Origin: Candidatus Heimdallarchaeota archaeon
GTDB lineage: Archaea; Asgardarchaeota; Heimdallarchaeia; Heimdallarchaeales; Heimdallarchaeaceae
Reading direction: 5' to 3'
DNA length: 64,000 bases
Assembly (NCBI GenBank): GCA_019057815.1
Contig: JAHLWR010000002.1
Span: 96,001-160,000 of the forward strand
Shown here: positions 36,424 through 58,995 of the stretch, piece after piece
How positions within the stretch are numbered: position 1 is the stretch's first letter
How the letters are laid out: every line of letters begins with the position of its first letter
Notes under the pieces: model-generated
Told to the model about the DNA's origin: nothing
Databases searched by the model: none
Seen by the model: the letters and a program-made list of their open reading frames with translations, nothing else
Translations under genes and position numbers: made by a program

Positions 36424-38031
36424 TTATTCTTCTTTTGCACTCAGTTGCTCACGTAATTTTTGATAGAACAGCTCATCTTCATCACCTATTGGCGAAAGTC
36501 CACCTTCTGTTACAACCCCTGTTCGTTCCACTTCTTGGTATTGTTTTTCTGCATCTAGCACAGGTTCAATAGCTGATTCTAATCTTGATGAAAGTCTCTC
36601 TTGTATGAAACCTATTAACACAGTAAAGAGAAGTATGAACACTACAATTGGAATAAGTAGCAACACTACGCCTTCAGGTTCATACATTTCTAAGGAATTG
36701 TATATTGAGGCCGGATAGCGCAGTACAAAGAGTAGTACATTTGGATTCAAAATTGCATATAATCCAGCAATCATTATCCCTACTCTAAACACTACAGAAA
36801 ATAACACATAGACAATCGTCATTAGCGGAGATATCGCCACTGAAGCTCCTACTAGCTTGTCATCTATTCTTGAATCACTTGCTACTAGACCATCATGATA
36901 TCTTTGGAGTCTACTCGTGAGCTTGTCTTTTTGTCCTCCAGGTTTTGCGAAAAGCGAATCTGATGCTTTGTCAATCATGAGAGCTACACCTGCAAAACCA
37001 AATTTTCTTGATACAGAGCTCCCTGTACTTGTGATTGATCTAGAGGCTTGTTTTTCATCAGAATCTTTGCCTTCAACTTCTTCAGCTACTTCAGGTGTTA
37101 ACTTTGCTGAATCAGTAGACACTATGCCTAGCCTGAAATCTTTCAACCTATCTAAAGCCCGTAACACACGCTGGTGCCTGTTCTGTGTGGGGTTGAGAAT
37201 CTTTGAAATATACGATATTTGGAGTGAGATTTCCAAAAACATATACGAAGCTAAAGCCACCATAACAACATTTGAACTAAACATATCTCCGATATTACTG
37301 GAAGGAGTGAAGGAAAATACATCTGGAGAATCTTGCCTAAAGAGGAGTTGAACACTGCTATAAAAAACAATAAATTGTGACAGAACAAATGCTGTAGCAG
37401 CTGAACGCATATCAGCACGGAAGATAAAAGCAAGAATAGCTATTCCTAAGAGAATAATAGCAAACCAAAGAAGAGATGCACGGTTAATAGCTTTCAATGT
37501 TTCTCCTTCCAAACTAAAAATGCTACTGAAGTATTTTCCAAAGGGAGAAAAGAGAAAATCTGGAACTGTAGCGCTAGAAGGAACAGCAAACAGATCATCA
37601 AGCCCTAAATTACTAATCGCATTTTGCATCGCAACAGGAACATCAACATTATTGAAAAGATCAGCACTGAGAAAGGCTCTGACAGTATTTAATATAGCCA
37701 CTGCATCTTGAGGAGAACCAGGTGGAGCATTAGCTGCATTAACAATAGGTATCAATACAAGGAAGGGGAGAGTAAAGAGAACGATAACTATAAGCTCGAT
37801 GAAAATAAAAATCAGTTTGAGAGTATCAAGAAGATGACCTTCAGGGAATTTAGCAGGATTTTCAAAATCAATGAGATCAAAGAGCGTTATTGATAACCAT
37901 ACAATAGCTCCAACAGCTATAAGGCGACCAATGACGTTGGTTGCCACATTTTGTATACGAGCACCACGTAGACGTCGCTGGACACCGCGGATACCGAGGT
38001 CAATGAAACCAGAATCTGAAAGAGAGTCCAT
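36424..38031 (-). CDS. Polytopic membrane protein, last gene of MoxR module 1
   Basis: About 7 TMs with a large cytoplasmic loop; 7 nt downstream of the DUF58 gene. Confidence 0.7.
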   Translation of the reverse strand: MDSLSDSGFIDLGIRGVQRRLRGARIQNVATNVIGRLIAVGAIVWLSITLFDLIDFENPAKFPEGHLLDTLKLIFIFIELIVIVLFTLPFLVLIPIVNAANAPPGSPQDAVAILNTVRAFLSADLFNNVDVPVAMQNAISNLGLDDLFAVPSSATVPDFLFSPFGKYFSSIFSLEGETLKAINRASLLWFAIILLGIAILAFIFRADMRSAATAFVLSQFIVFYSSVQLLFRQDSPDVFSFTPSSNIGDMFSSNVVMVALASYMFLEISLQISYISKILNPTQNRHQRVLRALDRLKDFRLGIVSTDSAKLTPEVAEEVEGKDSDEKQASRSITSTGSSVSRKFGFAGVALMIDKASDSLFAKPGGQKDKLTSRLQRYHDGLVASDSRIDDKLVGASVAISPLMTIVYVLFSVVFRVGIMIAGLYAILNPNVLLFVLRYPASIYNSLEMYEPEGVVLLLIPIVVFILLFTVLIGFIQERLSSRLESAIEPVLDAEKQYQEVERTGVVTEGGLSPIGDEDELFYQKLREQLSAKEE

Positions 38032-38038
38032 ACCATAA

Positions 38039-39481
38039 TCACCCTTGACGTTGCATTCGATTGAATTGAGCTAAAACTGTTGGCATAAAATCATCAGGAC
38101 CAACAGAAACGGAAGTTGCATCAAAGCCACGGAGAGCTTTAAACATAATTTGGCGCTCACCAAGCTGTTTTTCAACAAGTGCATGACCAATCATCTGCTC
38201 AACAGGAGAAAGCTGCTGAGAAACGATTTCAAACCAAGGACCGAAGGGAGAGACAACAGTAATGTTATGTTTACGAGCACGAGCACGACGAACAGCCGGA
38301 ATAATCTTTTGAGGATGCGATTCAAGGTCAGAAATTACAATTAAGTAAGCAGAACGCTTAACACGTTGAAGAATAAAGTCAACAGCATTCTCAAGATCAC
38401 CTTCACCCTCAGGTTTAGCATGAGCTAAAGCTTCAAGAAATTGGAAAAGTTGTGCTCGGACACCGGTAAGCTCAATAAAAGCACGAACCTTGGAATCATA
38501 AATACATAAAGCAACAAGATCTTTTTTCTCAAAAGCAAGATGGATAAAAAGAACAGCACTACGAATGGCATACTCAAGTTTAGTATTTCGAGGAAGACCA
38601 GCACCCATACTAGCAGAAGAATCAAGAATGATAACGACTCGAATGTTTTGCTCAGCTTCATACTCACGAACCATCATTTTCTGAGTACGACTATAAGCTT
38701 TCCAATCTATAAACTTGAATGCGTCACCAGTTTGATATTCGCGGATACCAAAAAAGTCAGTACCCATACCCTTTATTTTAGTGCGGTGGAAACCAAAAAG
38801 GAGACCAAGTTGTCTCTTCTTGCCAATCATCTCCATTTTGCGAATATCCTCGTACGATGGATACACAAGTATAGACGTCTTTGTTTTTATCTCTCCTTCC
38901 GTTGCATAGAATCCCATTCTATCTCTAATTATGACTTTAGTTGGACCTATATCAAACTCTCCTCTTATTGGAATCCTTACAATATAACCAAACGTTATTT
39001 CTTCTCTTGGATTCAATTGTGTTACGATAAAGTTTTCTCCTAAAATTAGATCAAATACTTCTGGTATAGCATCATATATTTCGATTGTAGGTATTTGGTT
39101 TACTGATTTGTTTCTTGCTGTAACTTCTATGTAAACATAATCTCCAGCAAAGGCTTTTGTTTTAGCTACTCTTCTCTTTATCTCAATACTTTTCGGGTTT
39201 GCTCCTAGTCTATAAAATGGCAGTCCTAATAGTACTGAAAATATTAGCATTACTCCCGCTATTATAAAATACCAAATTAATGTTGCATCTTTCACGTAAA
39301 AGTGGACTATGTCCATAATTCCGAAACCTTGTGCTTCTGCTGTCGACCCCTCAAGTGTTATTGGTTCTGATGTAAAGGAAGCTATTATATTATTCAGTGA
39401 CAAATATCCCGCTAACGCGAAACCAATTGAAATCATTACAATTCCAGCAAAAACTAGCCATCCGCCTCTACGTGTGAACAT
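38039..39481 (-). CDS. DUF58 (vWA-like) protein, MoxR partner
   Basis: LVYP, GTDFFGIREYQTGD, IDWKA, VREYE, LDSSASM, ISDL; two N-terminal TMs. Confidence 0.9.
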   Translation of the reverse strand: MFTRRGGWLVFAGIVMISIGFALAGYLSLNNIIASFTSEPITLEGSTAEAQGFGIMDIVHFYVKDATLIWYFIIAGVMLIFSVLLGLPFYRLGANPKSIEIKRRVAKTKAFAGDYVYIEVTARNKSVNQIPTIEIYDAIPEVFDLILGENFIVTQLNPREEITFGYIVRIPIRGEFDIGPTKVIIRDRMGFYATEGEIKTKTSILVYPSYEDIRKMEMIGKKRQLGLLFGFHRTKIKGMGTDFFGIREYQTGDAFKFIDWKAYSRTQKMMVREYEAEQNIRVVIILDSSASMGAGLPRNTKLEYAIRSAVLFIHLAFEKKDLVALCIYDSKVRAFIELTGVRAQLFQFLEALAHAKPEGEGDLENAVDFILQRVKRSAYLIVISDLESHPQKIIPAVRRARARKHNITVVSPFGPWFEIVSQQLSPVEQMIGHALVEKQLGERQIMFKALRGFDATSVSVGPDDFMPTVLAQFNRMQRQG

Positions 39482-39648: not shown

Positions 39649-40653
39649 CTAAACAGGCACAACAAGATTCCTTAGAATCTCATCTACAACCATTGTTCCA
39701 GTTGTTCCTTCAAGTTCTGCTTCAGGCTTCATCTGCAACCTGTGAGCTGTTGCTATTTTTGAAACTCTTTTTATATCATCGGGGATGACATAATCTCTTC
39801 CTCTCATAGATGCAACAGCTTTTCCAGCGTTGAGAAGGGCTATACTACATCGTGGACTACCACCTAGTATAAGTCTTGGGTCTGTTCTTGTTGCGACAAC
39901 AAGCTCTCTAATGTAATCTATAATATCCTCATGTACATATACTCGTCTTGCAACAGTTTCAATCATTTTTGTTATAGTCATAGGAGTAGTTACTCGTCGA
40001 ACAGTTTTGCGGATTCCTTTATGAATTAATTCAATAATCTCTTTTTCTTCATCAGGAGATGGCAATTCTACAAGAAGTTTGAACATGAAACGATCAACTT
40101 GTGCTTCTGGCAATGGGTAAGTTCCTTCTTGCTCTATTGGATTCTGTGTGGCAATAACTAAGAATGGTGGTTCAAGCTCAAATGTTGTTCCTTCGACAGT
40201 GACTTGTTTCTCCGCCATTGCTTCTAATAGCGCGGCTTGTGTTTTTGGTGGACTTCTGTTAATTTCGTCAGATAAGACGATATTACAAAATATTGGCCCT
40301 TTTCTCATTTTGAAGGTTCCAGCTTTTGGGTCATAAATTGTTGTTCCAACAACATCACTTGGTAGTAAGTCTGGTGTAAATTGTATTCTCTTAAAATCGC
40401 ACCCTAGTGTTGCTGCAAAATACTTAGCCATCACAGTTTTTGCAATTCCGGGGACTCCTTCTAATAGACAATGTCCTCCTCCTAGAAGAGCAATAAACAT
40501 ATCCTCTAGAATATCTACGTTGCCTATTATCACTTTTTCAAGTTCGCTATAGATTTCTTCCCAAACACGTTTAACATCCTTTGGTGTAACATATGTTTCT
40601 GTTTCAGCTTGTGCCTGTGCTTTTGCTGGTTTTTCTTCACTCATACTTTTCAC
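39649..40653 (-). CDS. moxR: MoxR-family AAA+ ATPase
   Basis: GHCLLEGVPGIAKT, RIQFTPDLLPSD, DEINRSPPKTQ, ATQNPIEQEGTYPLPEAQVDRF. Confidence 0.96.
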   Translation of the reverse strand: MKSMSEEKPAKAQAQAETETYVTPKDVKRVWEEIYSELEKVIIGNVDILEDMFIALLGGGHCLLEGVPGIAKTVMAKYFAATLGCDFKRIQFTPDLLPSDVVGTTIYDPKAGTFKMRKGPIFCNIVLSDEINRSPPKTQAALLEAMAEKQVTVEGTTFELEPPFLVIATQNPIEQEGTYPLPEAQVDRFMFKLLVELPSPDEEKEIIELIHKGIRKTVRRVTTPMTITKMIETVARRVYVHEDIIDYIRELVVATRTDPRLILGGSPRCSIALLNAGKAVASMRGRDYVIPDDIKRVSKIATAHRLQMKPEAELEGTTGTMVVDEILRNLVVPV

Positions 40654-40680: not shown

Positions 40681-42366
40681 CTACGATATTCTATCCATTA
40701 AATCTTTAATGAATGTCATTATAGTCAAAAATTCAGTTTCTTTCAATAAACGAGGTCTTCCCAAAAAGGCATCAATTCGTTTTAATTGAGGAAGAATATT
40801 TTTGACTTTCAAAGATGGATCTCTTTCTAAAAAGAATTCCGTTACTTCTTGTGGTGTATCAAGAGGACTACCAGATATTTTTCTAGCTCCTCTCAATAAT
40901 GCTCGATATAAGAGACTAATCGCTTCTTTGAATGCTCCTGTCTCTGTGATTCTCCGTATTTCTCTTTCAAATCTTGATTTTCCTGCTTCTCCCCTGTATT
41001 TTGTCCACAATACAGGTGTTAATCTTGTTTTCTTTGGAATAAGAGGATATGCTAATACTGCAATAAATATAGGTATAAATGGTGCGTATAAAGGAAACAT
41101 TGACATTTCAGTTATAAAGCGCATCAAAGTCATTGAATATATAGAAGCACTATAGAATTTTTGATGAACATGTCCTTCATCAAATATAATAGGGTAGGGT
41201 TCTCCTGCAGTTATGTTAAGATCCTGTGTGGCATAATCAAACAAGTTTTGACAGAATCTTAAATTGTCATTATCGTCAGTTTTTTCAATCCATTTGTTAA
41301 TAAAAATATCTGGATCGCCAATCATTATAATTTTACCATTACCTATAGGAAGAGTCATCATAGGAGCAAATTTTACATTTCCCCACTCATCTTCGTCAGG
41401 GGTTGCTGTCCCTTCTTTTGCTGCTTGAAAATCTGACTCTAACCATGCAGATTTGGAGGTATAAAATGGTAGAAATGGCAAGAATTGATCTTCTATTGAT
41501 CTGCCAAATAGAGACAAGGATACAGCCTGCATTGGCATCCAATCAGATTGATAGATTTTCACAGTCTGTGGGACACCTTGGTCAATGTATACACTATGAT
41601 TTATTTTTATACTAATAACAGTACCAAACTCCATTTGTATACCCTTGGTAATCCCATTAGTTAACGGGTTTGTCCCCTCAAACTCTTTTAAAAGTGGCTG
41701 AGCTGGATTAGTAGTATAACTTTCTGCATCCATTAATACTGAATTATTGAAACCAATACCTTTTAACATCCCTGCAATCATCGTGAAAATAAGATCTCCT
41801 CCTTCCTGTGTTGCATTTCCAAATAATTCGGATAATGAAGTTATTTTTCCTCCACTTACTGAAGCGACATCATCCCAAGTTTCTAATAAATTGAAGAGTG
41901 GTTCAAATATTTCAGAACCTGTTCCGTAATCATCAGCAATGATTAAACTTCCACCTCGTGCAAGAAACGCTATCATTGAAATAGTATCAGCTTGACTATA
42001 TTTTGTTGCTGGTCCAATGACTGTTACTACAGCTGATCTATTAAATCTATTTAGAATATTAAGTGATGACATACCATTTAATATCTCATATTTCTGTCCA
42101 TAAGCAGTTGTTTCTTGTTCTAAAAACAAGCGTACGCTAGAAAGCCCATCCCATCCTTCATTGTATATTGAGAACTTTGTCCCGAAGCTACCTAGCCCTA
42201 CCATTCCTAGAAATATAGGTACCACTATTACCATGAAGAGAAGAAACATTGCAATTGAGTACTTCGTAAAGGAAGGACGCCAACTAAGCTTTCTTCTTGA
42301 TGCTCTTTCGCTTCTTGACAACTTTCTTCTTTGTTGACTTCTTCTTTTGTTTTCCTCTTGGCTCAA
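40681..42366 (-). CDS. DUF4350 (GATase-like) membrane-anchored protein; start uncertain
   Basis: TM; SIYNEGWDGLS; GGSLIIADD; GKIIMIGDPDIFIN; FDEGH; second TM. Confidence 0.8.
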   Translation of the reverse strand: MSQEENKRRSQQRRKLSRSERASRRKLSWRPSFTKYSIAMFLLFMVIVVPIFLGMVGLGSFGTKFSIYNEGWDGLSSVRLFLEQETTAYGQKYEILNGMSSLNILNRFNRSAVVTVIGPATKYSQADTISMIAFLARGGSLIIADDYGTGSEIFEPLFNLLETWDDVASVSGGKITSLSELFGNATQEGGDLIFTMIAGMLKGIGFNNSVLMDAESYTTNPAQPLLKEFEGTNPLTNGITKGIQMEFGTVISIKINHSVYIDQGVPQTVKIYQSDWMPMQAVSLSLFGRSIEDQFLPFLPFYTSKSAWLESDFQAAKEGTATPDEDEWGNVKFAPMMTLPIGNGKIIMIGDPDIFINKWIEKTDDNDNLRFCQNLFDYATQDLNITAGEPYPIIFDEGHVHQKFYSASIYSMTLMRFITEMSMFPLYAPFIPIFIAVLAYPLIPKKTRLTPVLWTKYRGEAGKSRFEREIRRITETGAFKEAISLLYRALLRGARKISGSPLDTPQEVTEFFLERDPSLKVKNILPQLKRIDAFLGRPRLLKETEFLTIMTFIKDLMDRIS

Positions 42367-42766
42367 CTACTTCTACATCCTGTTCTCTTATACCTCTGAA
42401 ACAGATATCTAATCGCTGTATAGCCTCTTGATAGTCTTCATAAGTGACTTCTCTGTCAGTATAACGAGCAATTTCAAAGGAGACCATATATTCATCCATT
42501 ACTTCTGCGGAAATGTTCGCCTCATTAGATATTTCAAAACCAAATTCACGTCCAGTTGTATTAGAAGAACGAATCATATTTAATAAATCATGAGCAATGG
42601 TTGTTAAACCTCCAAATGAAGCGATTACAGCTCCGCGATAATCTTGCCTTTGTTCGAAGATTCTAACATCTCCCATGACTGTATTAAATATTTGATCTAA
42701 TCTCTTAACTTGTTTTTTCCTTTTGAAGAAACCAAATATACCTCTGTTACTCAACTTTCTTTTCAC
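42284..42766 (-). CDS. Stand-alone DUF4129-like protein with Lys-rich tail
   Basis: TTGREF...FEIARYTDREVT; SD-like AGGTG at start. Confidence 0.7.
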   Translation of the reverse strand: MKRKLSNRGIFGFFKRKKQVKRLDQIFNTVMGDVRIFEQRQDYRGAVIASFGGLTTIAHDLLNMIRSSNTTGREFGFEISNEANISAEVMDEYMVSFEIARYTDREVTYEDYQEAIQRLDICFRGIREQDVEVVEPRGKQKKKSTKKKVVKKRKSIKKKA

Positions 42767-42772: not shown

Positions 42773-45700
42773 TTATGTTTCAATTTCCATTTTACTAACT
42801 TCTAGTTGATCTATAGTTTTAAGGAGTGCTCTCACTCCTGCATTATAATCTTCTTCGGTTATAGGTTCATGACTATAACGCGCTTTTTCGAAATAATAAG
42901 TTATTGTAGCCATAGTTTCTTTTTGGATTTTTGCTTTTGCTGCTAAGAGAAAAGCAAATTCCATCGGTGTTTGATGTTTATATCTTGGAAGTTCGTAGAA
43001 CTCTCTACCTACACCTTCTACTACGTTCCACATTTTTATTAAACCTTCCTTATATCTTCCCTCAACTCCATCTCTTTTTATTTCTTCAATAATTTCTCTT
43101 AGGTAATCTCTTAATCTTCTTCTAAGAGTTTGTTTTTTAGCATAAGTTTGTAAAGAGTGTCTATTAATCCAGAAGAATAGAGCTATTATAACAACAGCTA
43201 AACCACCAACAACTCCACCGATGAGTGCACCGAGGTTTAGATCAGTACTACCACCAGGAGGAATAACAGGAGGAGGATTAACAACACTTAATAGCACAGG
43301 AGGTGTAGTAAGCAAATTATTGACAATATCATATGATAATAAATAGTAATTTAATGGAAAAGGATCTTCACTTGTTTCAGCTAGGGGATAAATAGAAAGA
43401 TTAAATGATGCAAAATATGTGTTTGTTGTTCCAACTTGAGTTAAATTCACAAGTATTGTCTGTCCATTATAATAAATATAAACTGTAACATTTTGTATAC
43501 CTGATCGTTCATCAGTAAGAATTATAGTAAAATTAAGAACAGTGTCGGCTTCTATAACTATGCCTGTATAATCAACAACTAAACCACCAGGGCCAATTAC
43601 AGGAGCGTCAGAGTCTATAGATGCTAGATTTCTTGTTACACTTGTGAAAGCATTGTTTGTGGGGTCTGCATTATCAGATGCAATATAGTACCAAGTGTAT
43701 TCATAATTATACTCCCCATCAAAGACATAAAACCATTGGTTAGTACCAGGAACGTTTGTCATTGTGTCATTAATATAATTTTCTTCCCAGACATCACTAC
43801 CTTCTACACTTCGATTAACATAAATTCTTACAGATGAAATATCTGTGTATATTAAACTGTCATTAACAAAAACTGTAATATTAAACCAAGGATTATCTAG
43901 TTCTGGAGATGTTAAGGTAACCGGAACTCCTTCTTCCACTGGTTCTTCATAATCCCCTATTTGATACTCATTATAGTGTGTACTATTATATAAATAAGTA
44001 ATCCATCCAAAGGTTACATCGTATTGTGCAACAGCTTGTCTTGTTCCACCAGCAGTTAAACCATAACCTGCAAAATCTTTGACCTCAATGTAATATTGTA
44101 TATAATTTTGTGCATACATCGTATTTATACTTAAAGTAGCTTCATATTGACCTCCCCCAATATCGATTAAAGTAATATTAGTCCATGTTTCTATTACACC
44201 TACACCCTCTTCATAAATTTGGTAGAACAATTTTACAAAGTTTATACCCGTTCCCACATCTGATGCAGTGACAGTAAAAGTAACATCAAAATAAGGTTCA
44301 TGTGGGACTATTATTAATGGATCTGGTGTGCGTATTTCTGCTGTTATTTGAGGTACATCATAATCTGGACCATAAATGTAAATTGTATGAGTTATTGACT
44401 CTGCATAAACCAATCCAGGAAGGACGTTTGCTGTGATTACAAGACCAGCAGGATAAGCTATTGATAGATCTAACCCACTGCTATCCAAATCACTCACAGT
44501 ATAAAGGACATAGTGAACAGCACTAGTGACTCCATCAGGGAGATTGTTTACTTCATCTCCTGCAAGAGTTATTGAAATCATCGCACCTAACGGTTTCCTA
44601 CCGAATTGATCTCTTACTGTAAGATTATATGCTTGAGCTGTCAATGAAGAATAGAAAGTATTGTTGAATTCTGTCCAATCAGCCACTGGATTATCTTGAG
44701 GATCAGTGAAAGTTAAAGTAAGATCATAATAGGTGTTAAAGGTGACGTTTGTTGAATCTACCCCTATTACATTATAACGATAAGTTACTTGGGTTTCATT
44801 CAAAGCATCTACTTGAATAGTTTTATTTTCTGTTTGAAGTGTAAAATCCGGGACATTTCTATTCAATATTATATTCCCACTTGCTTCAGTTATAAATTCC
44901 ACTAACCCTATTTCTGGAAAGGTTAAACTGAATCTTGAAAGAGGAGCTTTATTTCCAGCTTCATCTATAACAGTTATATTATAATAAATGATTTCCCCTG
45001 GAGTGTAAAAATTCCCATCAGGGTTATTATACAAATTAATTTCAATTGAGTAGATATTTATTGCATAGTGAACAGTTAAATCATCATCATTCAAAAGAGC
45101 TGCTCCAAATTCAGATGAAAGAGCCTCAAAATGGATATTTATTGTGTCTGTGATATCCGTAATGTTGCTTGTGAGATCATAAGTTTTCCGGATTTCAGCT
45201 TGTAAATCAGTTAAAAGGTCTTCTACAATATATACTCCTCCACCGCCAATTATAGTTACTCTTATTGTCTTACTAGGCTCAGCACCAGTATCTGAAGTTA
45301 AATTAGCAAAAACAGTGAAAGTAGAACCATATACAACCTCAACTGGCGTTTTTGTGTATGATAATATTCCAACTTCAAAATATGCATCAACAACTACTTG
45401 GTTGTCTGTCTTTGTAGTGTTATAATAAGCGAGGAATCTATCGTTTTCTGGGTCAACAGAATCATTATCTCTAAAGAAAGTCAACCCTAATGGCGCAAAA
45501 TTATAGAATACAGTTATGTCTACGTCTTGTACAAGTAGAGGAGCTGTTCCAGAATAAATATCGTTGTAGGGGGAAATTATACCAAAAGTACGATTACCAT
45601 TGAAATCTGTTCCACTAACCCACCACTCTACCTTAAGGGTATATTCATTGCCTTGTGTGTCTACTACTGACCCATTATCAAAATAACATTGACTAGTAAT

Positions 45701-50014: not shown

Positions 50015-50746
50015 TTGTCAGTTTTCAATAAGGTTGTGATTCAAATAGAGGTTAAATTACTTTCTTATCCTTCAGAAATGGAATTAGTAGCAAAAATAGG
50101 GGCGGCTATTTGTTATTTGGGAAAACAAAAGTTTAGTGAAATTGAAGAAATCGCAAAAAACAAGCCAGATAGTTATTTACAGGAAATTATCAAGTCGAGA
50201 CATCTCTCGATTATTGAACATAACGTTTTTGTTTTTTACATCTCAGGTATAAGTAGAGTCGCCAGTCATCAGTTAGTGAGAAAAAGAATCGCTTCCTTCA
50301 GTCAACAATCACAGCGATACGTCAATGCATCGAATTTTGAATTCGTAACTCCTAATGAAATTGAAGGATCTCAATTCGCTGAAGAATATAAACAAACTGC
50401 AAAGAGAAATTTTGATCTTTACCAAAAAATGGTTAATGCAGGAGTGTCAAAAGAAACTGCGAGATATGTACTACCTAATGCTACAACAACACAACTTATA
50501 GTATCAATGAATGCACATGCGTTGATTGATTTTTTTGCTCAACGTTGTTGCAATCGAAGTCAAGGTGAAACACAAGAAATTGCTATGAAAATGTTAGAAG
50601 AAGTAAAACTCGTTTCTCCCACTATTTTCAAAGAAGCTGGAGCATTTTGCGATTTTTATGGTTATTGTCCTGAAAACTCAAATTCTTGTGGAAAGTCACT
50701 CACACTTTCCCAATTAAAGGAACAAAATAAGAACAAACAGCTATAA
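50015..50746 (+). CDS. thyX: FAD-dependent thymidylate synthase
   Basis: HLSIIEH, ISRVASHQLVRKR..SFSQQSQRY, ETARYVLP, MNAH, QRCC..SQGE. Confidence 0.92.
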   Translation: MSVFNKVVIQIEVKLLSYPSEMELVAKIGAAICYLGKQKFSEIEEIAKNKPDSYLQEIIKSRHLSIIEHNVFVFYISGISRVASHQLVRKRIASFSQQSQRYVNASNFEFVTPNEIEGSQFAEEYKQTAKRNFDLYQKMVNAGVSKETARYVLPNATTTQLIVSMNAHALIDFFAQRCCNRSQGETQEIAMKMLEEVKLVSPTIFKEAGAFCDFYGYCPENSNSCGKSLTLSQLKEQNKNKQL

Positions 50747-51567: not shown

Positions 51568-52959
51568 TTATACCCTTATAGCTTCTCTAATTATTCGTTG
51601 TGTGGGAGAGTATTTCTTCATCAAACGGTAAAGTGACAAAATGATATTATCATCATAACCCTTTACATCAACAAAGTCCCCACCAACAGTAAAGAGGATT
51701 TCTCTGACAAGTATTTCCCTTTGTTTATATTCATCTTTTACCAAACTTGGTAATACATTTCCCAGTATCTGATTATACTCCTTGTGTATAGATTGATTTT
51801 GCAACCATTCAGGTGATGACAACAGATTGAAACCCATAGTTGAAAAATTAACAAAAATTATTCGACTTGCCATGGATCTTAGAAGCTGTAATCCACGCAA
51901 TTTTTGTGTGATGTCTCCTTCTAAATCGGAAAAAATGATAGCAATAGAATGGTGTAATTGTTGGTTTTTTACAAAATTTATAGCTCTTATAAGGTTACTC
52001 TGAATACCTGTAGGCTCTAAATCGTACAAATTAAGCATTAGTTTTAACTCGTCTTTCCCAACCTGTGGAACAATATATCTTTGTACTTCTTCTTCATAGG
52101 CTATTATAGCCAAATCATGTTGTGTTCCTTGTATCAGTGATGAAAGTTCAACAACTGATGAGAGAGCATAGTCAAACTTAGGTCCAAACATATTACTACC
52201 AAGGTCTAGAAAAATAAGAAAATGGAGATTCTTCTGATCCTCAAATTCTTTGGATATTAGCTTATCTTGTCTAGCTGTTGCAAACCAATGAATATGTTTA
52301 AAATGGTCTCCTAGTTGATATTCACGTAGTGAATGAAATTCATCACCTCTCCCTTTAATTCTATGAGCAAATTCATGAATCATTTTAAGGAGGAGATCTT
52401 TCTTCGTTTTCCAGGGGATATAAGTTCTAGGCCGTTGAGGAAGAACTTTGATAGATTTAATATCCCCTAATATTCTTCGATTTATAAATATACTTTGAAA
52501 GGGGCTCAATGAGATTTCGATTGGACCAACACTTCCACTACCTCTTCTAGCCGCCAAAAGTAACCAGTGTATTTTTTTGGATTCTTTGGGTTGAATCCTT
52601 ATGTTTAAGGTTTCAGGAGTGTCTATACACGTAAAGTGGTACGAGTAACTCAGTGTGATTCGAACAAACCTTGGTTTTTCAGCAGTATTTGTTATTTCAG
52701 CAGCAATAGCTATAAGTCCCCTATTTCTAACATATTCTTTCGAAAGTTTGATTGACACATTAAATTCTACATTTCTATTCGAAAGAAAATAAATAAAAGC
52801 TGAAGAAATAATCAACCAAAAGAAGCATCCAGGGATTATAAAAAGAAAATTATCAATTGCCAAACCTAGAATCACAGAAATACTCGACAACAACAAAAAG
52901 GTCTTACCATTCTTTGTTAATTCTATGTTCGCTTTACTATTCATAGGATTTTTCCTCAT
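51568..52959 (-). CDS. DUF58 (vWA-like) protein with degenerate MIDAS
   Basis: GDEFHSLREYQLGD, IHWFATAR, SKEFE, LDLGSNM, FSDL. Confidence 0.88.
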   Translation of the reverse strand: MRKNPMNSKANIELTKNGKTFLLLSSISVILGLAIDNFLFIIPGCFFWLIISSAFIYFLSNRNVEFNVSIKLSKEYVRNRGLIAIAAEITNTAEKPRFVRITLSYSYHFTCIDTPETLNIRIQPKESKKIHWLLLAARRGSGSVGPIEISLSPFQSIFINRRILGDIKSIKVLPQRPRTYIPWKTKKDLLLKMIHEFAHRIKGRGDEFHSLREYQLGDHFKHIHWFATARQDKLISKEFEDQKNLHFLIFLDLGSNMFGPKFDYALSSVVELSSLIQGTQHDLAIIAYEEEVQRYIVPQVGKDELKLMLNLYDLEPTGIQSNLIRAINFVKNQQLHHSIAIIFSDLEGDITQKLRGLQLLRSMASRIIFVNFSTMGFNLLSSPEWLQNQSIHKEYNQILGNVLPSLVKDEYKQREILVREILFTVGGDFVDVKGYDDNIILSLYRLMKKYSPTQRIIREAIRV

Positions 52960-52964
52960 TCATA

Positions 52965-53909
52965 TTAGATAACAACATGTACTTCTGAAAGTATGTTCTC
53001 AATTATTTCTGAGACCCTTATTTGCTCAATTTCAGCTTCAGGAGAGAGTATGAGTCTATGATTCATAACTGGAAAGAAAATTGATTTTATATCATCTGGT
53101 TCTATGTAATCTCTACCTCTTATTGCTGCTATTGCTCTACTTAGAGTCATGAGAGCTATAGAGCCACGAGGGCTAGATCCTAACGAAAGAGAGGGTATCG
53201 AACGTGTTGCCACTACTAAATTTGATATGTATTCCATTATTTGATCGCTAACTACAACATCTTTTTCTATTTCGTGTTTTAGTTTGCTAATTGTATTTTG
53301 ATCAGTCACTTGCTCAATATCAGCAAACATCTTCACTTTCTTCATTTTTAGCATAGCAATTTCCCCTTCCAAATCTGGTGGGTAAACTGGAATTTTTACT
53401 AAGAAACGATCAATTTGAGCTTCAGGGAGCGGATATACACCTGTTAATTCAATAGGGTTTTGAGTTGCAATAACTATAAAGGGTTCAGGAAGTTTGTGTG
53501 TTTCTTGCCCAACTGACACTTGTCGTTCTTGCATCGCTTCTAATAATGCGGATTGTGTCTTTGGAGGGCTACGATTTATTTCATCAGCAAGAAGAATATT
53601 TGTAAATACAGGTCCTTTAAAGAAGCTAAATGAACTTGTTTCTCTTTCAAAAATAAGCCCTCCTGAGATATCAGTAGGCATCATATCACTTGTGAATTGT
53701 ATTCGTGTAAAATCCATCTTCATAGTTTCTGCTAGTGTACTAGCCATTAGCGTTTTAGCTATCCCAGGAACACCTTCAAGCAGACAATGCCCGCCAGCTA
53801 ACATTGTAGCAAACATTAACTCAATGACATTTTCATTCTGCACTATACGTTTTCGCATTTCACCCATAATATTCTCAAAAATATCCTTTGCTTCATTTAC
53901 TTTAGTCAT
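52965..53909 (-). CDS. moxR: MoxR-family AAA+ ATPase (second copy)
   Basis: GHCLLEGVPGIAKT, LADEINRSPPKTQSALLEAMQE, ATQNPIE, LPEAQIDRF. Confidence 0.96.
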   Translation of the reverse strand: MTKVNEAKDIFENIMGEMRKRIVQNENVIELMFATMLAGGHCLLEGVPGIAKTLMASTLAETMKMDFTRIQFTSDMMPTDISGGLIFERETSSFSFFKGPVFTNILLADEINRSPPKTQSALLEAMQERQVSVGQETHKLPEPFIVIATQNPIELTGVYPLPEAQIDRFLVKIPVYPPDLEGEIAMLKMKKVKMFADIEQVTDQNTISKLKHEIEKDVVVSDQIMEYISNLVVATRSIPSLSLGSSPRGSIALMTLSRAIAAIRGRDYIEPDDIKSIFFPVMNHRLILSPEAEIEQIRVSEIIENILSEVHVVI

Positions 53910-55187
53910 TTACATCAACCTTTTCCTTTTCTGAATCTCTTCCAATTTTGAAAACAGATAGATGAATGTATCATAATCTATCTTTCTAATAATCATTTCT
54001 TCAAACAGTTCTTTCTCCTCTTTAGTTAATAATAATGGTTTAATATAACTTAGCTTTTGCTGAAGATATAAGTTAAAAGCCTGGGGATGTAGTTCGTATT
54101 GAAAATATAAAGAAAAAAGAATCTTCTCTTCAACAGTAGGTTTAACAACTTGTCCAAATGTATCATATAATTCTCGTCCCCTGCTCCAGATTTTATTGGA
54201 CAAAAAATTACGGTATGATTCTGTTGGTTTAAATAATTTCTGTATCCTTGGAGCAAAATAATACAATATTAAAAGTAGGAGAACAACAATAAATATTAGT
54301 AATTGTGATTTTGATAGCAAGACTAAATTTCCATAAGATTGGTTTATTATTCCTTCTGTAGATCTTAAAGGCCACTTTTTGTGGCTCTCCTCAAAACATA
54401 CTAAGCTTGGTTTTTCTGGTGATAAAATACTTAAATAATATCTGATGAGATCAATATTACCATAAAATTTCGTATAAAGATCATTGACCAAGAAGCTTGA
54501 AGAAGTTATAGCTATTATTATTCCTCTTCCTCTTCTTATCACAGTACCAATTTTGTGGAGTTGTGTTCTTTCCATTAAAACTGACCAAATTCCATCATTA
54601 TTAGAGTCTATAAACGTGGTTCCTGCTGTAACTATATTCCCAATTTCTCTTTGATTTCTATCACTAGCTATTTCTAGAATAGCTTTTGGCTTAACAAAGC
54701 AGAGAGTATCATTAATCTCTGTAGAATTTACAAGTATGATTTCAGGTGATTTGTAATAGTGAACTGTCTCAAAAAGACTTAATCCGGAATAAATTATACC
54801 AAAATACGCAGCTAAACCTGCAACTACTCCATCTCCCCCAAGTAGAACAAGAGTACCACCTCTCAAGACAAAAGAATCAATAATTGCTCTCTCTGGATTA
54901 CGATAAGTCTTTGTACCACCCGCTATCACTAAAGTTGAAGTAGAGTTAAGGTCCATAATAGGATCTGTTGATAACAGGGTTCTCGAAATATTATAACCAT
55001 CATGAAATAACAATGCATCAACATAAGACATACCGTCAGGACCTCTATTTTCGATCGAATATGGGGGAGGAGAACTTGCAAAGTTTATACTTAAAGGGAG
55101 AAGAATAACCACAAATAGAATTATTGTTTGAATTAGTACTTTGAACAGAGGAAAATTTTGAGCACTATAAAGATTTTTCAGTTTCAT
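53910..55187 (-). CDS. DUF4350 membrane-anchored protein (second copy)
   Basis: YSIENRGPDGMS, GGTLVL, GRGIII, FEESH, second TM. Confidence 0.78.
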   Translation of the reverse strand: MKLKNLYSAQNFPLFKVLIQTIILFVVILLPLSINFASSPPPYSIENRGPDGMSYVDALLFHDGYNISRTLLSTDPIMDLNSTSTLVIAGGTKTYRNPERAIIDSFVLRGGTLVLLGGDGVVAGLAAYFGIIYSGLSLFETVHYYKSPEIILVNSTEINDTLCFVKPKAILEIASDRNQREIGNIVTAGTTFIDSNNDGIWSVLMERTQLHKIGTVIRRGRGIIIAITSSSFLVNDLYTKFYGNIDLIRYYLSILSPEKPSLVCFEESHKKWPLRSTEGIINQSYGNLVLLSKSQLLIFIVVLLLLILYYFAPRIQKLFKPTESYRNFLSNKIWSRGRELYDTFGQVVKPTVEEKILFSLYFQYELHPQAFNLYLQQKLSYIKPLLLTKEEKELFEEMIIRKIDYDTFIYLFSKLEEIQKRKRLM

Positions 55188-55189
55188 TG

Positions 55190-55957
55190 TTAGCTATCCT
55201 TTAGTGATTTTTCATAAATTTGTATTTCATATCTTGATTTACTAAGTGCTTGCATGGTTAGAAGTTTTTCAATGAATAGTATCAAATCTTCATGTTTCAT
55301 CTCAGCGAGCTGATATCTTGCAGAATAGAAGAGACTGATTATTACATCAATATGTTCAATAATTTCTGGTAAATCAAGTGAGAGAATGAATTCTTTTGGC
55401 GTTAGAAAATTCTCTCTCTTCTTACCAATCATTTTTCGCATATTTTGATCTAGCTTGTGATATCCATAGATAATACCTTCAGCATAACTGCCTTTTTGAA
55501 GAAACTCACTAAGAATATCAATTAGAGTTTTAATATGTGTTTGAAACTTATCTCTTCGCGAATCAATAATTGTTTTTTTCACTACGGATGACGAAGAAAT
55601 CATTCGTCTATCTTCAGTTCGTTTTCTGAGGGTCAAAGCAACAGCTAAAACAAGTAAAATCACTCCTATAATTACAGGGATAATTTGCGGTGATATTAAG
55701 GGTTCTTTGTTAAACTCAACAGGTTTTTCTGGAATTTCTGGTCCTGAAGAAGGAACAGTAGGAGCAGTTGGTGTAGAAGTAGAAGAAGAGGGAGAGGTAG
55801 AAGAAGATGTAGTTTGGTCTGTACTTTGAAGAGATGTTGATTCAACATCATCTAAACTCACATAACTTTCTTGTGAGCTGTTAGCTAAAATAAAAATAAC
55901 TATACAAGCTATTATAATCCAGATTTTTGTGTTGAAAAATTTCTTAACATTGTTCAC
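55190..55957 (-). CDS. DUF4129 protein with S/T/P-rich linker and TM
   Basis: N-terminal TM, TSSSTSPSSST linker, TM, LTPKEF...FYSARY. Confidence 0.72.
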   Translation of the reverse strand: MNNVKKFFNTKIWIIIACIVIFILANSSQESYVSLDDVESTSLQSTDQTTSSSTSPSSSTSTPTAPTVPSSGPEIPEKPVEFNKEPLISPQIIPVIIGVILLVLAVALTLRKRTEDRRMISSSSVVKKTIIDSRRDKFQTHIKTLIDILSEFLQKGSYAEGIIYGYHKLDQNMRKMIGKKRENFLTPKEFILSLDLPEIIEHIDVIISLFYSARYQLAEMKHEDLILFIEKLLTMQALSKSRYEIQIYEKSLKDS

Positions 55958-56918
55958 CCTTTATCTCACCTCTGTTCACTTCTTCAATTATTGATTCACT
56001 TTGTTGAATAAAAGCATACACTTTACATAGACTCCACATTCCTGATACACATATTTGGAGTTTGTGCGATGCGGTTTTATAACCTAGATAAGAACACCTT
56101 TGTTCCTCAAAATAAGGACAAACGTTAGTTTGTCTTATCTTTATCATTGCTTCAAGCTTTCTATTTAGATATATCATAGAAAATGCTTTTGTCTTTTTAG
56201 TTGCTTCATAATTTGAACCACTACGATCAAAAATAGTAACGACTGAAACTGGTGTTTCAGGAAGAATTTCAGGAGAATAAACAACTTTGGAACCTTTCTT
56301 TGGAAATATAAGATAAGAAAGTTTTCTACCAAGTATTGTACCTAGATAACCGCCAACAGCGCTGAAAATAAGAAAACTCGCCGTAAACATGAAAATAAAG
56401 CTGAAGAAAAGAAAATTAGGCAAAATTGAGGCTATTAGGTCTATATTTGAAGTTGTAAATAAGAAGATTTGTGATATATATAATAGAACAACGAAGAGAA
56501 AAGAAAGTAGTGAACTAATTAAAACTAAATCTATAGCATCTTTTTCCCATACAATTCCAGTTACCAAACCAGCAATGAAAAACGGAATTAAGGTATTAAT
56601 AATAATTCCATTAATAAATTCCATTATATTTTGCGCTTCGAATGTTATAGAGAAAGGCAAGAATAAGATTTCATCTGGTGACCAAACAAGATTTTCTATT
56701 ACATAGTTATTTTGAAGGGAAAAAAAGAATATTGAAAAGAATATTGAAATACCATAACTAAGGGAGAGATAAAATGAACCCCTCAATATAAGATTCGTAA
56801 AGTACTCTTTCCTACCACGTTTACCTCTATGAGGGAATAATACTTTAAGAAACACTTCCTTCATTGGTTTGTTGGATGGATGTGTTTTAGCACTTCTAGA
56901 ATTTTTGTGATTACTCAT
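55944..56918 (-). CDS. Membrane protein with C-terminal Cys cluster
   Basis: Likely start ATG 56918 (MSNHK), overlapping the PrsW stop (ATGA); about 4 TMs; CPY...C...C...W..C. Confidence 0.65.
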   Translation of the reverse strand: MSNHKNSRSAKTHPSNKPMKEVFLKVLFPHRGKRGRKEYFTNLILRGSFYLSLSYGISIFFSIFFFSLQNNYVIENLVWSPDEILFLPFSITFEAQNIMEFINGIIINTLIPFFIAGLVTGIVWEKDAIDLVLISSLLSFLFVVLLYISQIFLFTTSNIDLIASILPNFLFFSFIFMFTASFLIFSAVGGYLGTILGRKLSYLIFPKKGSKVVYSPEILPETPVSVVTIFDRSGSNYEATKKTKAFSMIYLNRKLEAMIKIRQTNVCPYFEEQRCSYLGYKTASHKLQICVSGMWSLCKVYAFIQQSESIIEEVNRGEIKGEQC

Positions 56919-58609
56919 TTTATCCCCTCGCTCAAAATTAGTTTTGACCCAGAAATAACTTTTATAAGATAAGCAATACTTACAAAGAAAATCACCATCA
57001 CACAAATCAGGCTAGTAAAGCCATATAGAAAACGAAAAGAGAAGATCAGTACTAATGCGAAAACACCCATATATAGTGAGGATACAATAAGAGAAAGTAC
57101 AACAATTGACGTGACAATTATTGAACTTAACATTGATTGGACTCTATTTTTAGCAGAAAAAAACCACACAAATGTGATTAGAAGAGCTAATAAAATTGCT
57201 ACAATAAAGACTACATATCCAAGAAAAGAAACGGAACTTTGTATATCCATAAAGACAAATAACAAACTTATCAAAATCCCTACAATAATAACTCTAGTAA
57301 AACCGACTGAAAAGCTCACATAAAGCGGTGGAAACGATGAATTCATTTTGTCATATAATGTTGTTACTTCTCTACCACAAGACCAACAATTTCTTGCAAA
57401 AGCAGGAACTAGTTGATTACAATTATTACATTGCAGTTTTGGGAAGAACCAACATAAATCACAGTATTCGCTATTATAATTTCTTGTAAAACAGTTTGAA
57501 CATAAAAACTCCTTTTCAGATTCTTTATACAAGTATGGGTACTTTGGTTTTGATTTTAACACTTTTGCAAGTTTTCCACTTTTATCTCTAAGGACTGGGC
57601 ATTCAGATGACATATGCTCTGTGAAACAAAACAAACAGTATTTTGGAATTTTTATTAACAATATTAGTGCAAAAAAAATGTATAGAACATATGAGCTGTA
57701 ATTCATAATAGATAGTGCAGTTAAATTCTCATTAACTACTGAATAATAATTTACTAAACCATGAAAACCGGTACCTAAAAAAAGGAAAACACTAAAAATG
57801 AGAATCCTTACTTTTTTCGGGTAACTTCTGCCTATGAAAATTATTCCAATCCCTAGTGCAACAATCATTGAAGAAACACTATGAAGAGGATAGATTGTCC
57901 TACCAAAAAGTAAAGAGCTGATCACAAAGTTTGTAGAAAGAGTTGAATAAGACAAAAATTGTTCTATTAAGTCGAACCATGCACCAAAAAAACCACCAAG
58001 AAAGACAGCCATTCTTAGAGAGGGTACTAAACGAGTCTCATAGTTAAATTCTTCATGGGAAAGACGAGCATAATTTCCTAATAACATTACTACCGGAAAA
58101 ATTTTTGCTATCTCTTCTATAAGAGGGATTACAATAGCGTAAAACACATGTTGTATCTTTTGAGGAGTTAAAGGGGATATGTTCATCTGGTTAAGTACAG
58201 AATTTATTACAATAAAAAGGGAAAAAGCCTTATTTTCTATAACAACAGAAAAATAAGCAGTTAAGATACCAAGTATCATTAACAGGGGAAATATCAATTT
58301 AATTATTGACGACTCTGTTTTAGTAATTGAGATACTAAAAACTAGAAATAGTGTGATTACCCAGAATAGAAATCCTAGTATGAGAAATGAGACAACATAG
58401 ACTGGGAAATAAGGGGTATTAACGACATTGTAAGATATGTTGAGAAGAAGGATTATAATGGCAACTAGAATACCAACTATAATTGCTTTAATTAGGGTTG
58501 AAAAGGAAATTATTTTTCCATTAAGTTGAAAATTAAACAATGATTCATCAGTAGACCTATCCCTAAACAACTCAGCTTTTGATACAGGTTTATCACTATT
58601 TTCAATCAT
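56915..58609 (-). CDS. PrsW-family glutamic intramembrane protease fused to zinc ribbons and extra TMs
   Basis: PLIEEIAK, FDLIEQ, PLH, FHGLVN; CxxC pairs CLFC, CSNC, CDLC, CNNC, CWSC. Confidence 0.82.
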   Translation of the reverse strand: MIENSDKPVSKAELFRDRSTDESLFNFQLNGKIISFSTLIKAIIVGILVAIIILLLNISYNVVNTPYFPVYVVSFLILGFLFWVITLFLVFSISITKTESSIIKLIFPLLMILGILTAYFSVVIENKAFSLFIVINSVLNQMNISPLTPQKIQHVFYAIVIPLIEEIAKIFPVVMLLGNYARLSHEEFNYETRLVPSLRMAVFLGGFFGAWFDLIEQFLSYSTLSTNFVISSLLFGRTIYPLHSVSSMIVALGIGIIFIGRSYPKKVRILIFSVFLFLGTGFHGLVNYYSVVNENLTALSIMNYSSYVLYIFFALILLIKIPKYCLFCFTEHMSSECPVLRDKSGKLAKVLKSKPKYPYLYKESEKEFLCSNCFTRNYNSEYCDLCWFFPKLQCNNCNQLVPAFARNCWSCGREVTTLYDKMNSSFPPLYVSFSVGFTRVIIVGILISLLFVFMDIQSSVSFLGYVVFIVAILLALLITFVWFFSAKNRVQSMLSSIIVTSIVVLSLIVSSLYMGVFALVLIFSFRFLYGFTSLICVMVIFFVSIAYLIKVISGSKLILSEGIK

Positions 58610-58746
58610 AACATATTTTCACTTTACAGAGTATTGCTATTCATAAAACTATCAAACAGTAAAGATATCTTATATTGAACACTTAAAACTCTTTTCAAGA
58701 ATAAAGAAATTGATTTATATGAGAGAAAAAAAAAGAAAATTTCTTT

Positions 58747-58995
58747 TTATTCAATAAGAGCAGCTTCAGTTATATCTCCAATTGCTTTTATTAGGAAGAA
58801 TAAGAATATGACACAAGAACCTACTAGAATAGCTATTTGTGGTCCTCTTCCAAAAGCTAAAGGGTATCCGACACTACCAAAATAAAGCGTATCTGAACTC
58901 CCAATAATAATTGAAAATAGTATACCTATTAATGAAGCTGTAAGTGGGATAAACCAAAATAAAGTTACTTTCAATGCTTGAAGAACGCCTACCAT
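58747..58995 (-). CDS. Small 2-TM membrane protein
   Basis: Strong SD AGGAGG; oligo-T tract downstream. Confidence 0.65.
   Translation of the reverse strand: MVGVLQALKVTLFWFIPLTASLIGILFSIIIGSSDTLYFGSVGYPLAFGRGPQIAILVGSCVIFLFFLIKAIGDITEAALIE

Follow-up and report, generated by a model that had tools for sequence, protein, structure and literature searches.

We analyzed a 64,000-nucleotide window of a Candidatus Heimdallarchaeota archaeon (GenBank assembly GCA_019057815.1, contig JAHLWR010000002.1, positions 96,001 to 160,000 of the forward strand), an Asgard archaeon of the family Heimdallarchaeaceae. Positions 36424-58995 of this window hold 15 tightly packed minus-strand open reading frames (ORFs), all at the positions given in a preliminary description of the region. 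These ORFs make up two operons, module 1 (49659-36424, minus strand, 7 genes) and module 2 (58995-50748, minus strand, 8 genes), which share the core order DUF4129 > DUF4350 > MoxR > DUF58 > polytopic membrane protein (Table 1). Neighboring genes overlap or are at most 27 nucleotides (nt) apart, save at the MoxR1/DUF58-1 junction (167 nt) and between the gene for an 82-amino acid (aa) protein and PrsW (137 nt). The preliminary description had recognized two minus-strand modules with this core order and with overlapping or nearly abutting genes, and this is borne out by the ORFs and by Pfam, which finds two sets of DUF4350, MoxR, and DUF58. Its account of the two module heads also stands, but it passed over an additional free DUF4129 gene in module 1 and the thyX gene between the modules. 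We consider it very probable that these are two independent operons, each a form of the archaeal DUF4350/MoxR/DUF58 (von Willebrand factor A, vWA) module, and that they diverged before the radiation of the order; this confidence covers the statements on identity and evolution.

Table 1 Genes of the two modules and the gene that separates them. Positions are those of the window; TM, transmembrane segment.
Feature	Length (aa)	Position	Strand	Basis or remark
Module 1 gene 1, TgpA-like membrane protein	1059	46480..49659	-	Transglut_core 22.4 bits; TMs
Module 1 gene 2, giant type-I membrane protein	1235	42773..46480	-	DUF4129 tail; AlphaFold model
Module 1 gene 3, free soluble DUF4129 protein	160	42284..42766	-	Paralog of the giant protein's tail; Lys-rich C-terminus
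Module 1 gene 4, DUF4350-1	561	40681..42366	-	Pfam DUF4350 43.3 bits
Module 1 gene 5, MoxR1 AAA+ ATPase, predicted cytoplasmic	334	39649..40653	-	AAA_3 218 bits
Module 1 gene 6, DUF58-1	480	38039..39481	-	DUF58 113.9 bits; VWA_2 45 bits
Module 1 gene 7, polytopic membrane protein	535	36424..38031	-	Family without Pfam entry; closes the cluster across Asgard archaea
Module 2 gene 1, two-TM protein	82	58747..58995	-	ORF and TMs
Module 2 gene 2, predicted PrsW-type intramembrane protease	564	56915..58609	-	Pfam PrsW 44 bits
Module 2 gene 3, 4-TM membrane protein	353	55944..57005	-	C-terminal domain with four invariant Cys
Module 2 gene 4, bitopic DUF4129-like protein	255	55190..55957	-	Profiles; alignment A4
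Module 2 gene 5, DUF4350-2	425	53910..55187	-	Pfam DUF4350 34.8 bits; topology as DUF4350-1
Module 2 gene 6, MoxR2	314	52965..53909	-	AAA_3 211 bits
Module 2 gene 7, DUF58-2	463	51568..52959	-	DUF58 66 bits; no VWA match
Module 2 gene 8, six-TM membrane protein	271	50748..51563	-	No family match
thyX, separator outside both modules		50015..50746	+	Pfam Thy1 199.9 bits

The preliminary description had read the two modules as one duplicated machine; on such a reading the halves would cooperate, for example through mixed MoxR1/MoxR2 rings or through regulation of module 1 by PrsW. The MoxR phylogeny instead places their split before the order diversified. In a maximum-likelihood tree, MoxR proteins fall into an M1 clade, to which MoxR1 belongs, and an M2 clade with MoxR2 (100/99 support each), and since each clade contains all four families (f1-f4), the duplication is older than the order. 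Paralogs are 50% (MoxR1/MoxR2), 23% (DUF58-1/DUF58-2), and, over the N-terminal third, 26% (DUF4350) identical, and these identities together with the tree rule out a recent tandem duplication. The membrane proteins that close the two operons are unrelated to each other (hhalign of the 271-aa protein against the module 1 family, probability 4.7%).

Linkage of the modules in relatives, which the preliminary description had named as a test, gave a divided outcome. Within Heimdallarchaeaceae the modules are adjacent. In five genomes the 15 genes are collinear, with conservation grading from the cytoplasmic core (MoxR 71-81%) down to surface-exposed parts (32-46%); in at least 16 genomes, a single contig carries both DUF4350 genes at a distance of 12-13 kb; and four genera preserve the order module 2 > thyX > module 1. 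No such linkage exists in genomes from other families, where the modules lie on different contigs of a 10-contig assembly (G030) and 140 kb apart in a single-contig genome (G258). Furthermore, thyX lies on the opposite strand, convergent with module 2 and divergent from module 1, which rules out one transcript shared by both operons; this placement recurs in all five Heimdallarchaeaceae genomes compared and in the congeneric genome G001. Adjacency is a family-level trait of two independent systems and does not count as evidence for one machine. Cooperation of the modules would fit their conserved adjacency and the presence of both types in nearly all genomes of the order, but separate transcription units, the lack of linkage in G030 and G258, the low identity of the paralogs, the unrelated terminal membrane proteins, and the ancient split all count against it, and we regard it as very improbable.

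The thyX ortholog between the two modules of another genome (G014, L010:961-2748) is a 595-aa open frame that aligns to the 243-aa ThyX in two separate pieces and may hold an intein or other insertion. In a scan, TTTAWATA boxes were fewer than expected by chance, and neither operon has one upstream.

Both modules are under purifying selection, and neither is decaying. The ratio of nonsynonymous to synonymous substitution rates (dN/dS) between congeneric genomes was 0.045-0.19 in module 1, except for the giant protein (0.42), and 0.17-0.46 in module 2. Relaxed selection on MoxR2 and DUF58-2, a possibility raised in the preliminary description, was absent (dN/dS 0.17 for both). Pseudogenization of module 2 is thus ruled out by these ratios and by its intact frames; the 82-aa gene, which has orthologs in five family genomes, gave a value of 1.2, but at 82 codons it is too short for this to be interpreted.

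We next describe the core shared by the two modules. TMs were counted with a simple hydropathy script, and the membrane topologies given here are predictions from hydropathy, the positive-inside rule, and the distribution of glycosylation sequons. Sequons are enriched in predicted ectodomains only and are absent from every predicted cytoplasmic tail; the soluble domains of the DUF58 proteins show no sequon enrichment. Both MoxR proteins have the Walker A motif GVPGIAKT, followed by the Walker B motif LSDEINR in MoxR1 (AAA_lid_2 83 bits; dN/dS 0.045) and LADEINR in MoxR2 (lid 80 bits). Matches to bpMoxR are weak in both (34 and 45 bits) and lie under the far stronger AAA_3 matches. Directly downstream of each MoxR gene lies a DUF58 gene (PF01882 over cut-off). 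DUF58-1 has a hairpin of two TMs, then a predicted cytoplasmic region comprising a beta-sandwich and a vWA domain, whose metal ion-dependent adhesion site (MIDAS) motif DxSxS is intact, with its columns kept in orthologs. The MIDAS of DUF58-2 is degenerate, reading DLGSN here and DLGST in the other three Heimdallarchaeaceae orthologs, and it varies further in other families.

Both DUF4350 proteins pass the PF14258 cut-off of 30.4 bits and have TMs on either side of the domain. In DUF4350-1, an N-terminal TM precedes a predicted extracellular flavodoxin/GldG-like domain, which is followed by a second TM and a predicted cytoplasmic tail of ~115 aa; Pfam also gives weak ABC_transp_aux and IFT52 GIFT matches, and orthologs occur in 40 of 41 related genomes. 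Its Arg/Lys-rich N-terminus (TTG start) overlaps the Lys-rich C-terminus of the 160-aa gene by 83 nt (42284-42366), and its true start is uncertain because the N-terminal ~30 residues are unconserved in orthologs. A search for DUF4350-like proteins returned 5145 cluster representatives, and the named members among the best matches were from Asgard archaea and Korarchaeota; a tblastn search of plasmids with DUF4350-2 gave no match. Neither closing membrane protein, the 535-aa protein of module 1 or the 271-aa protein of module 2, has a Pfam or NCBIfam match, and the ESM Atlas placed both in unnamed clusters only, with no channel-like fold identified.

Two other MoxR-DUF58 loci came to light. 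One is a third set in genome G000 (contig C38, L024:2224-13615), which encodes a helix-turn-helix regulator, a MoxR (339 aa) that falls outside the M1 and M2 clades, three proteins without a Pfam match, a short DUF58 (316 aa), a CARDB protein, and a HEAT-repeat protein. The other, a DUF58 locus on a Mycolicibacterium plasmid, turned out to be of a different MoxR-DUF58 type.

The two modules differ most at their heads. Module 1 begins with a 1059-aa protein that has a basic N-terminus, 4-5 TMs, and a large, predicted glycosylated ectodomain (14 sequons versus 8.3 ± 2.6 in shuffled sequences) with a transglutaminase-like core at residues ~461-530. Its Pfam score for Transglut_core is just below the cut-off of 23 bits, and Pfam finds no DUF3488. 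A profile of 15 orthologs matched the transglutaminase domain of Pseudomonas aeruginosa TgpA (PDB 6G49; E 1.2e-3), and in the alignment the catalytic position lacks a Cys and the His is replaced by Phe/Tyr. When aligned to Asgard homologs that keep the Cys/His/Asp triad, the protein shows Cys>Ala, His>Phe, and Asp>Gln; sister families have Ile-or-Leu/His/Asn at these positions. Thus, the dead transglutaminase of the preliminary description is confirmed as one with an Ala/Phe/Gln triad. The gene itself has a dN/dS of 0.19. There is no DUF4129 in the same chain; this domain is found on the next gene product. A stretch inside the gene (47200-49000) is only 80-82% identical at the nucleotide level to the congener G001, versus 93-98% in its flanks, and the synonymous divergence of the gene (dS 0.47) compares with 0.04-0.20 for all other genes compared. 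This divergence hot spot, in the exposed middle of the pseudo-transglutaminase, may reflect allelic replacement or recombination.

The second gene encodes a giant protein of 1235 aa. Its signal peptide is followed by tandem beta-sandwich domains spanning ~1050 aa, a single TM (1080-1108), and a predicted cytoplasmic helical tail, in which Pfam detects DUF4129 at residues 1163-1219 (35.8 bits). Its AlphaFold model (predicted local distance difference test score, pLDDT, 75) is all-beta in the ectodomain and continues with a TM helix and a tail of five helices; the N-terminal tip is disordered. The best PDB matches of this model in Foldseek are arrays of macroglobulin (MG), immunoglobulin (Ig), and fibronectin type III (FN3) domains, with low global TM-scores, as expected for a flexible array. 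The protein had been called Ig-rich; the beta-sandwich array is supported by AlphaFold and Foldseek, but sequence searches saw no Ig domains in it. The receptor-like topology proposed for it (signal peptide, beta-sandwich array, TM, and conserved, predicted cytoplasmic DUF4129 tail) agrees with our annotation. The protein has 25 sequons, versus 13.6 ± 3.2 in shuffled sequences. Identity to family orthologs is 12-24% in the tip (the membrane-distal ~100 residues), 34-45% in the ectodomain, and 45-72% in the tail, and the dN/dS of this gene (0.42) compares with 0.05-0.09 for the core genes.

DUF4129 occurs in three proteins of the two modules. Besides the giant protein, module 1 encodes a free 160-aa copy, which scores 63 bits against a profile of the giant protein's tail and 16.8 bits, a weak match, against Pfam DUF4129; its AlphaFold model (pLDDT 84) has five helices, and its dN/dS is 0.125. 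In the 255-aa protein of module 2, a signal/anchor and a short stalk rich in Ser/Thr/Pro precede a TM and a predicted cytoplasmic DUF4129-like domain. This protein has no Pfam match, DUF4129 falling below the Pfam reporting threshold, but it scores 19.5 bits against the tail profile and 21.7 bits in the reverse direction, and blastp aligns it to the giant protein's tail (E 4e-4). In an alignment of 17 sequences (A4), a Tyr, an Arg, an Ala, and a Tyr column are invariant across all three DUF4129 classes. Sequence comparison thus indicates that the DUF4129 domains of the 1235-, 160-, and 255-aa proteins are homologous. The tail of DUF4350-1 was considered as a fourth copy, but it reached only 7.6 bits and hence is not claimed. 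HEPN domains are the top structural neighbors of the five-helix bundle (42284-42766; tails 42776-43165 and 55193-55597). We treat an assignment to HEPN as no more than a lead: the matches (Z 8-10, up to 10.2; Foldseek E 0.07) are within chance for helical bundles, and A4 contains no conserved Rx4-6H motif.

Comparison across Asgard archaea reveals module 1 as the local version of a cluster that nearly all of them carry in single copy and whose plan is homologous to that of the bacterial MoxR-DUF58-TgpA operon. The 535-aa family is present in 176 of 189 Asgard genomes (~93%; all at least 90% complete) and is nearly always single copy. Five loci from other Asgard families share one plan, in which giant transglutaminase/Ig/DUF4129 protein(s) are followed by DUF4350, MoxR, DUF58, and the 535-aa family. 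The giant head is encoded there as one protein or as 2-3 pieces that carry TMs, Transglut_core, Ig/MG/CarboxypepD_reg repeats, a TM, and DUF4129, and the closing protein (433-478 aa, polytopic, one copy beside DUF58) is homologous to the 535-aa protein. In at least 15 further genomes, a transglutaminase core lies 6-11 kb upstream of the 535-aa family on the same contig and strand. The 1059-aa protein has full-length relatives within the order only; in the rest of the phylum, matches are limited to the transglutaminase core and fall in proteins of 650-2300 aa. In the orthologous proteins of other Asgard families, Transglut_core scores 43-134 bits, and transglutaminase and DUF4129 are fused in one polypeptide in G074, G107, and G045. 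The triad is intact in G074 and G045 and has been lost in G107, in G214, and in the present order. Because these three lineages lost it by different substitutions, catalysis is dispensable for the role of the cluster. Here, two genes share out the parts of the giant Asgard protein, one encoding the transglutaminase-like protein without a triad and the other the beta-sandwich array that ends in DUF4129, and a third gene adds the free DUF4129 copy.

In module 2, which has no large ectodomain and no large exported protein, the giant head is replaced by an intact PrsW fused to zinc ribbons and by a Cys4 membrane protein. The 564-aa protein matches PrsW (PF13367) well above the cut-off of 23.5 bits, and the motifs EExxK, FxxxE, H, and HxxxN are kept in all six orthologs, so that it is predicted to be a PrsW protease with intact catalytic motifs. 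The PrsW domain is fused to a predicted cytoplasmic zinc-ribbon region, in which 11 Cys are invariant in the six orthologs, and to further TMs. The PrsW/zinc-ribbon protein of the preliminary description is thereby upheld for both its catalytic motifs and its ribbon Cys. The same is true of its Cys-cluster membrane protein, the 353-aa protein, in which Cys 296, 304, 319, and 327 are invariant among orthologs; this protein also has a weak DUF5518 match, and its true start is likely the ATG at 56918, overlapping the PrsW stop codon. None of the 353-, 255-, 271-, and 82-aa proteins has a Pfam domain above the reporting threshold, and NCBIfam added nothing.

The full module 2 set, i.e., PrsW with ribbons, a multi-TM protein, a short-stalk DUF4129 protein, DUF4350, MoxR, DUF58, and a six-TM protein of ~250 aa, recurs in family f2 (G025) and in another order of the class (G258). 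In both, a PrsW ortholog leads the module and a distant ortholog of the 271-aa protein closes it. The lead protein of module 2 in G030 keeps the zinc ribbons and has no detectable PrsW domain. This module type is conserved across all four families of Heimdallarchaeia in which it was found. In Bacillus subtilis, PrsW is the site-1 signaling protease that cleaves the anti-sigma factor RsiW. The module 2 protein resembles it in having the domain over the Pfam cut-off and the conserved catalytic motifs, and differs from it in the zinc-ribbon insert, the extra TMs, and its place as the lead gene of a MoxR-DUF58 operon. Archaea are not known to have sigma/anti-sigma pairs.

The closest characterized relative of the module 1 head is the PA2875-PA2874-tgpA operon of P. 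aeruginosa. Its TgpA is an active, essential enzyme (668-688 aa, both lengths being given) that consists of DUF3488 TMs, a periplasmic transglutaminase, a TM, and a cytoplasmic C-terminus (PMC3507681). As in module 1, a MoxR-type ATPase and a DUF58 protein are encoded beside a polytopic protein with an outward transglutaminase-like domain, and in other Asgard lineages the TgpA plan of TMs, transglutaminase, TM, and DUF4129 is found within one protein. Module 1 departs from TgpA in its lost triad, in the division of the protein between two genes, in ~ten extra beta-sandwich domains, and in the addition of DUF4350 and a terminal polytopic protein. A second bacterial relative is the actinobacterial DUF4129-DUF4350-MoxR-DUF58-SpoIIM-RDD cluster (Rv3689-Rv3695 type), which is co-regulated in M. 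chelonae (PMC8191103). It shares DUF4129, DUF4350, MoxR, DUF58, and then a polytopic membrane protein with our modules, and Nocardia farcinica DNA shows the order DUF4129 > MoxR > DUF58 > SpoIIM. In contrast, the actinobacterial cluster closes with SpoIIM (PF01944), which is unrelated to both closing proteins, and RDD was not seen in the modules, nor PrsW or a giant head in the actinobacterial cluster. We rejected SpoIIM as an identity for the closing proteins: there is no PF01944 in the genome, and hmmsearch and hhalign comparisons with Nocardia SpoIIM were negative.

Among archaea, Makarova et al. (2015) described a neighborhood of arCOG01314 (DUF4350) with COG0714 MoxR, an Ig+vWA protein, and Ig-like surface and membrane proteins, for which they proposed a secretion or membrane-remodeling complex, with MoxR possibly assembling or regulating the complex (PMC5898192). 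Both modules resemble this complex, as judged by domain content rather than by arCOG assignment, in that they encode a membrane-anchored DUF4350 with a flavodoxin/GldG-like domain, MoxR, an Ig+vWA (DUF58) protein, and membrane proteins; Ig-like surface proteins are found in module 1 only. The 2015 complex differs in being a genomic prediction from non-Asgard archaea with S-layer-type partners, and its description does not include the transglutaminase/DUF4129 giant protein, the 535-aa family, the PrsW-led form, or paired operons. The two modules had been put forward as the best candidate for an undescribed system; this does not hold, as the neighborhood was predicted in 2015 (PMC5898192) and module 1 is a form of the TgpA-type cluster.

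On the secretion side of that proposal, the GldG-like DUF4350, the polytopic membrane protein, and the vWA/Ig proteins would together serve as a conduit for export or anchoring of the giant protein. In favor are the similarity of DUF4350 to GldG, a part of the gliding/type IX apparatus, and the wealth of Ig-like surface proteins in its neighborhood (PMC5898192); the weak ABC_transp_aux matches point the same way, and a giant surface protein always stands at the head of module 1. Against it, translocation is not a MoxR function; Sec and membrane insertion would be enough for the giant protein, which brings a signal peptide and a TM anchor of its own; module 2 lacks a large exported protein; and no channel-like fold was identified for the polytopic proteins. 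We consider a secretion or surface-display system quite unlikely.

MoxR-vWA pairs act as remodeling chaperones and co-chaperones (Kaur, Burroughs, Iyer, and Aravind 2020, PMC7159879). In MoxR-vWA ternary conflict systems, as in our modules, such a pair is present, and it is proposed there to reorganize a complex by peptide binding and ATP hydrolysis. The VMAP, iSTAND, FtsH, propeller, and effector domains of those systems were not detected by Pfam in the modules, and the modules are a core single-copy locus, whereas ternary conflict systems form a variable defense island.

Taken as a whole, our data are explained best, and with somewhat better than even probability, by two old DUF4350/MoxR/DUF58 operons that would carry out inside-out remodeling of surface-protein complexes. 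The most likely role is ATP-driven remodeling of such complexes through cytoplasmic DUF4129 tails; the mechanism itself we propose tentatively. The glycosylated ectodomains of the giant protein, the pseudo-transglutaminase, and DUF4350 would form a surface complex, in which the pseudo-transglutaminase domain would serve as a binding scaffold and not as an enzyme. The cytoplasmic helical tails (DUF4129 and the DUF4350 tail) would be offered as clients to the membrane-tethered vWA domain of DUF58, which in module 1 could bind an acidic side chain through the MIDAS metal. Driven by ATP, a MoxR hexamer would then act on the complex from the cytoplasmic side to remodel, assemble, or reset it, and the terminal polytopic protein would serve as membrane platform. 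In module 2, cleavage of a membrane partner by PrsW may gate the same motor pair or be gated by it.

Several points weigh against this proposal. Metal-bridged binding cannot hold for module 2 as stated, because DUF58-2 lacks a canonical MIDAS. The vWA protein was taken as secreted by Makarova et al. (PMC5898192), and our predicted cytoplasmic placement of DUF58 follows from the positive-inside rule and the absent sequon enrichment. Contact of DUF4129 with DUF58 or MoxR is putative. A sensor or an adhesin would account for the fast evolution of the giant protein's tip at least as well as a structural protein would. Finally, family f3 (G030) has the head (transglutaminase-Ig-DUF4129-DUF4350) and the motor (DUF58-MoxR-535-aa family) on different contigs. 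Because f3 encodes them apart, coupling of the head and motor genes is not obligatory, and this defines two sub-modules. The motor on contig C4 of G030 (L025:4593-8787) has the order DUF58 > MoxR > membrane protein rather than MoxR > DUF58.

The main alternative is sensing from the outside in, for which the Esr pathway of Actinomycetales would be the model. Esr, the only relative with experimental evidence of function, comprises the Ig-repeat filament EsrA, the transglutaminase EsrD, a MoxR, and a vWA protein, and its role in threat sensing has experimental support (bioRxiv 10.64898/2026.09.08.750141). Esr and the related bifidobacterial PFNA operon (PMC8430577) share with module 1 a long Ig-repeat surface protein, a transglutaminase, MoxR, and vWA/DUF58. 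By analogy, the giant protein would be a surface sensor or adhesin whose variable tip recognizes a partner, epibiont, or substrate; the pseudo-transglutaminase would hold it non-covalently, and the signal would pass via the DUF4129 tail to DUF58/MoxR. Output would be through the 535-aa protein in module 1 or, in module 2, through PrsW cleavage of a membrane-bound regulator, in keeping with the signaling role of PrsW in Bacillus. The hypervariable tip beside a conserved tail, the raised dN/dS of the giant protein relative to the core, and the divergence hot spot of the pseudo-transglutaminase between congeners all fit such a sensor, and the tip and the hot spot keep this reading alive. On the other hand, the Esr filament is tipped by a beta-propeller, its transglutaminase is active and serves anchoring, and its output is made up of a Ser/Thr kinase, a phosphatase, and an FHA protein. 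None of these features was found among the 15 proteins of the modules, nor does either operon encode a transcription factor by Pfam. Esr lacks DUF4350 and DUF4129 as far as the preprint describes. The transglutaminase here cannot crosslink, and a housekeeping role in the envelope suits a single-copy, near-universal Asgard cluster better than variable sensing does. Because this is a single-copy core locus without signaling output domains, we rank inside-out remodeling somewhat above outside-in sensing, which we judge unlikely but worth keeping in view. A joint reading, which we hold to be rather unlikely, would make module 1 a conserved Asgard apparatus for display and control of a giant variable surface glycoprotein that recognizes partner cells or surfaces, with signaling via DUF4129 tails to a MoxR/vWA motor, and module 2 a system of regulated intramembrane proteolysis in which a motor of this kind gates PrsW. 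There, the PrsW zinc ribbon and the Cys4 partner might hold or release a cytoplasmic regulator, as a sigma-factor-free analog of PrsW/RsiW.

These operons are not a new kind of system; they are a well-delimited variant of a kind predicted from genomes in 2015 (Makarova et al.). The module 1 cluster is single copy, occurs in ~93% of the well-assembled Asgard genomes sampled, and always encodes one of the cell's largest surface proteins, and hypotheses on the origin of eukaryotes give a central place to the surface architecture and cell-cell contact of Asgard archaea. The comparisons also provide handles on the cluster: transglutaminase activity is dispensable, given at least three losses of the triad; conservation within the giant protein is highest in its predicted cytoplasmic DUF4129 tail; a family without a Pfam entry always closes the operon; and head and motor are separable. 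The PrsW-led module 2, in turn, is a defined candidate for intramembrane proteolytic signaling in archaea.

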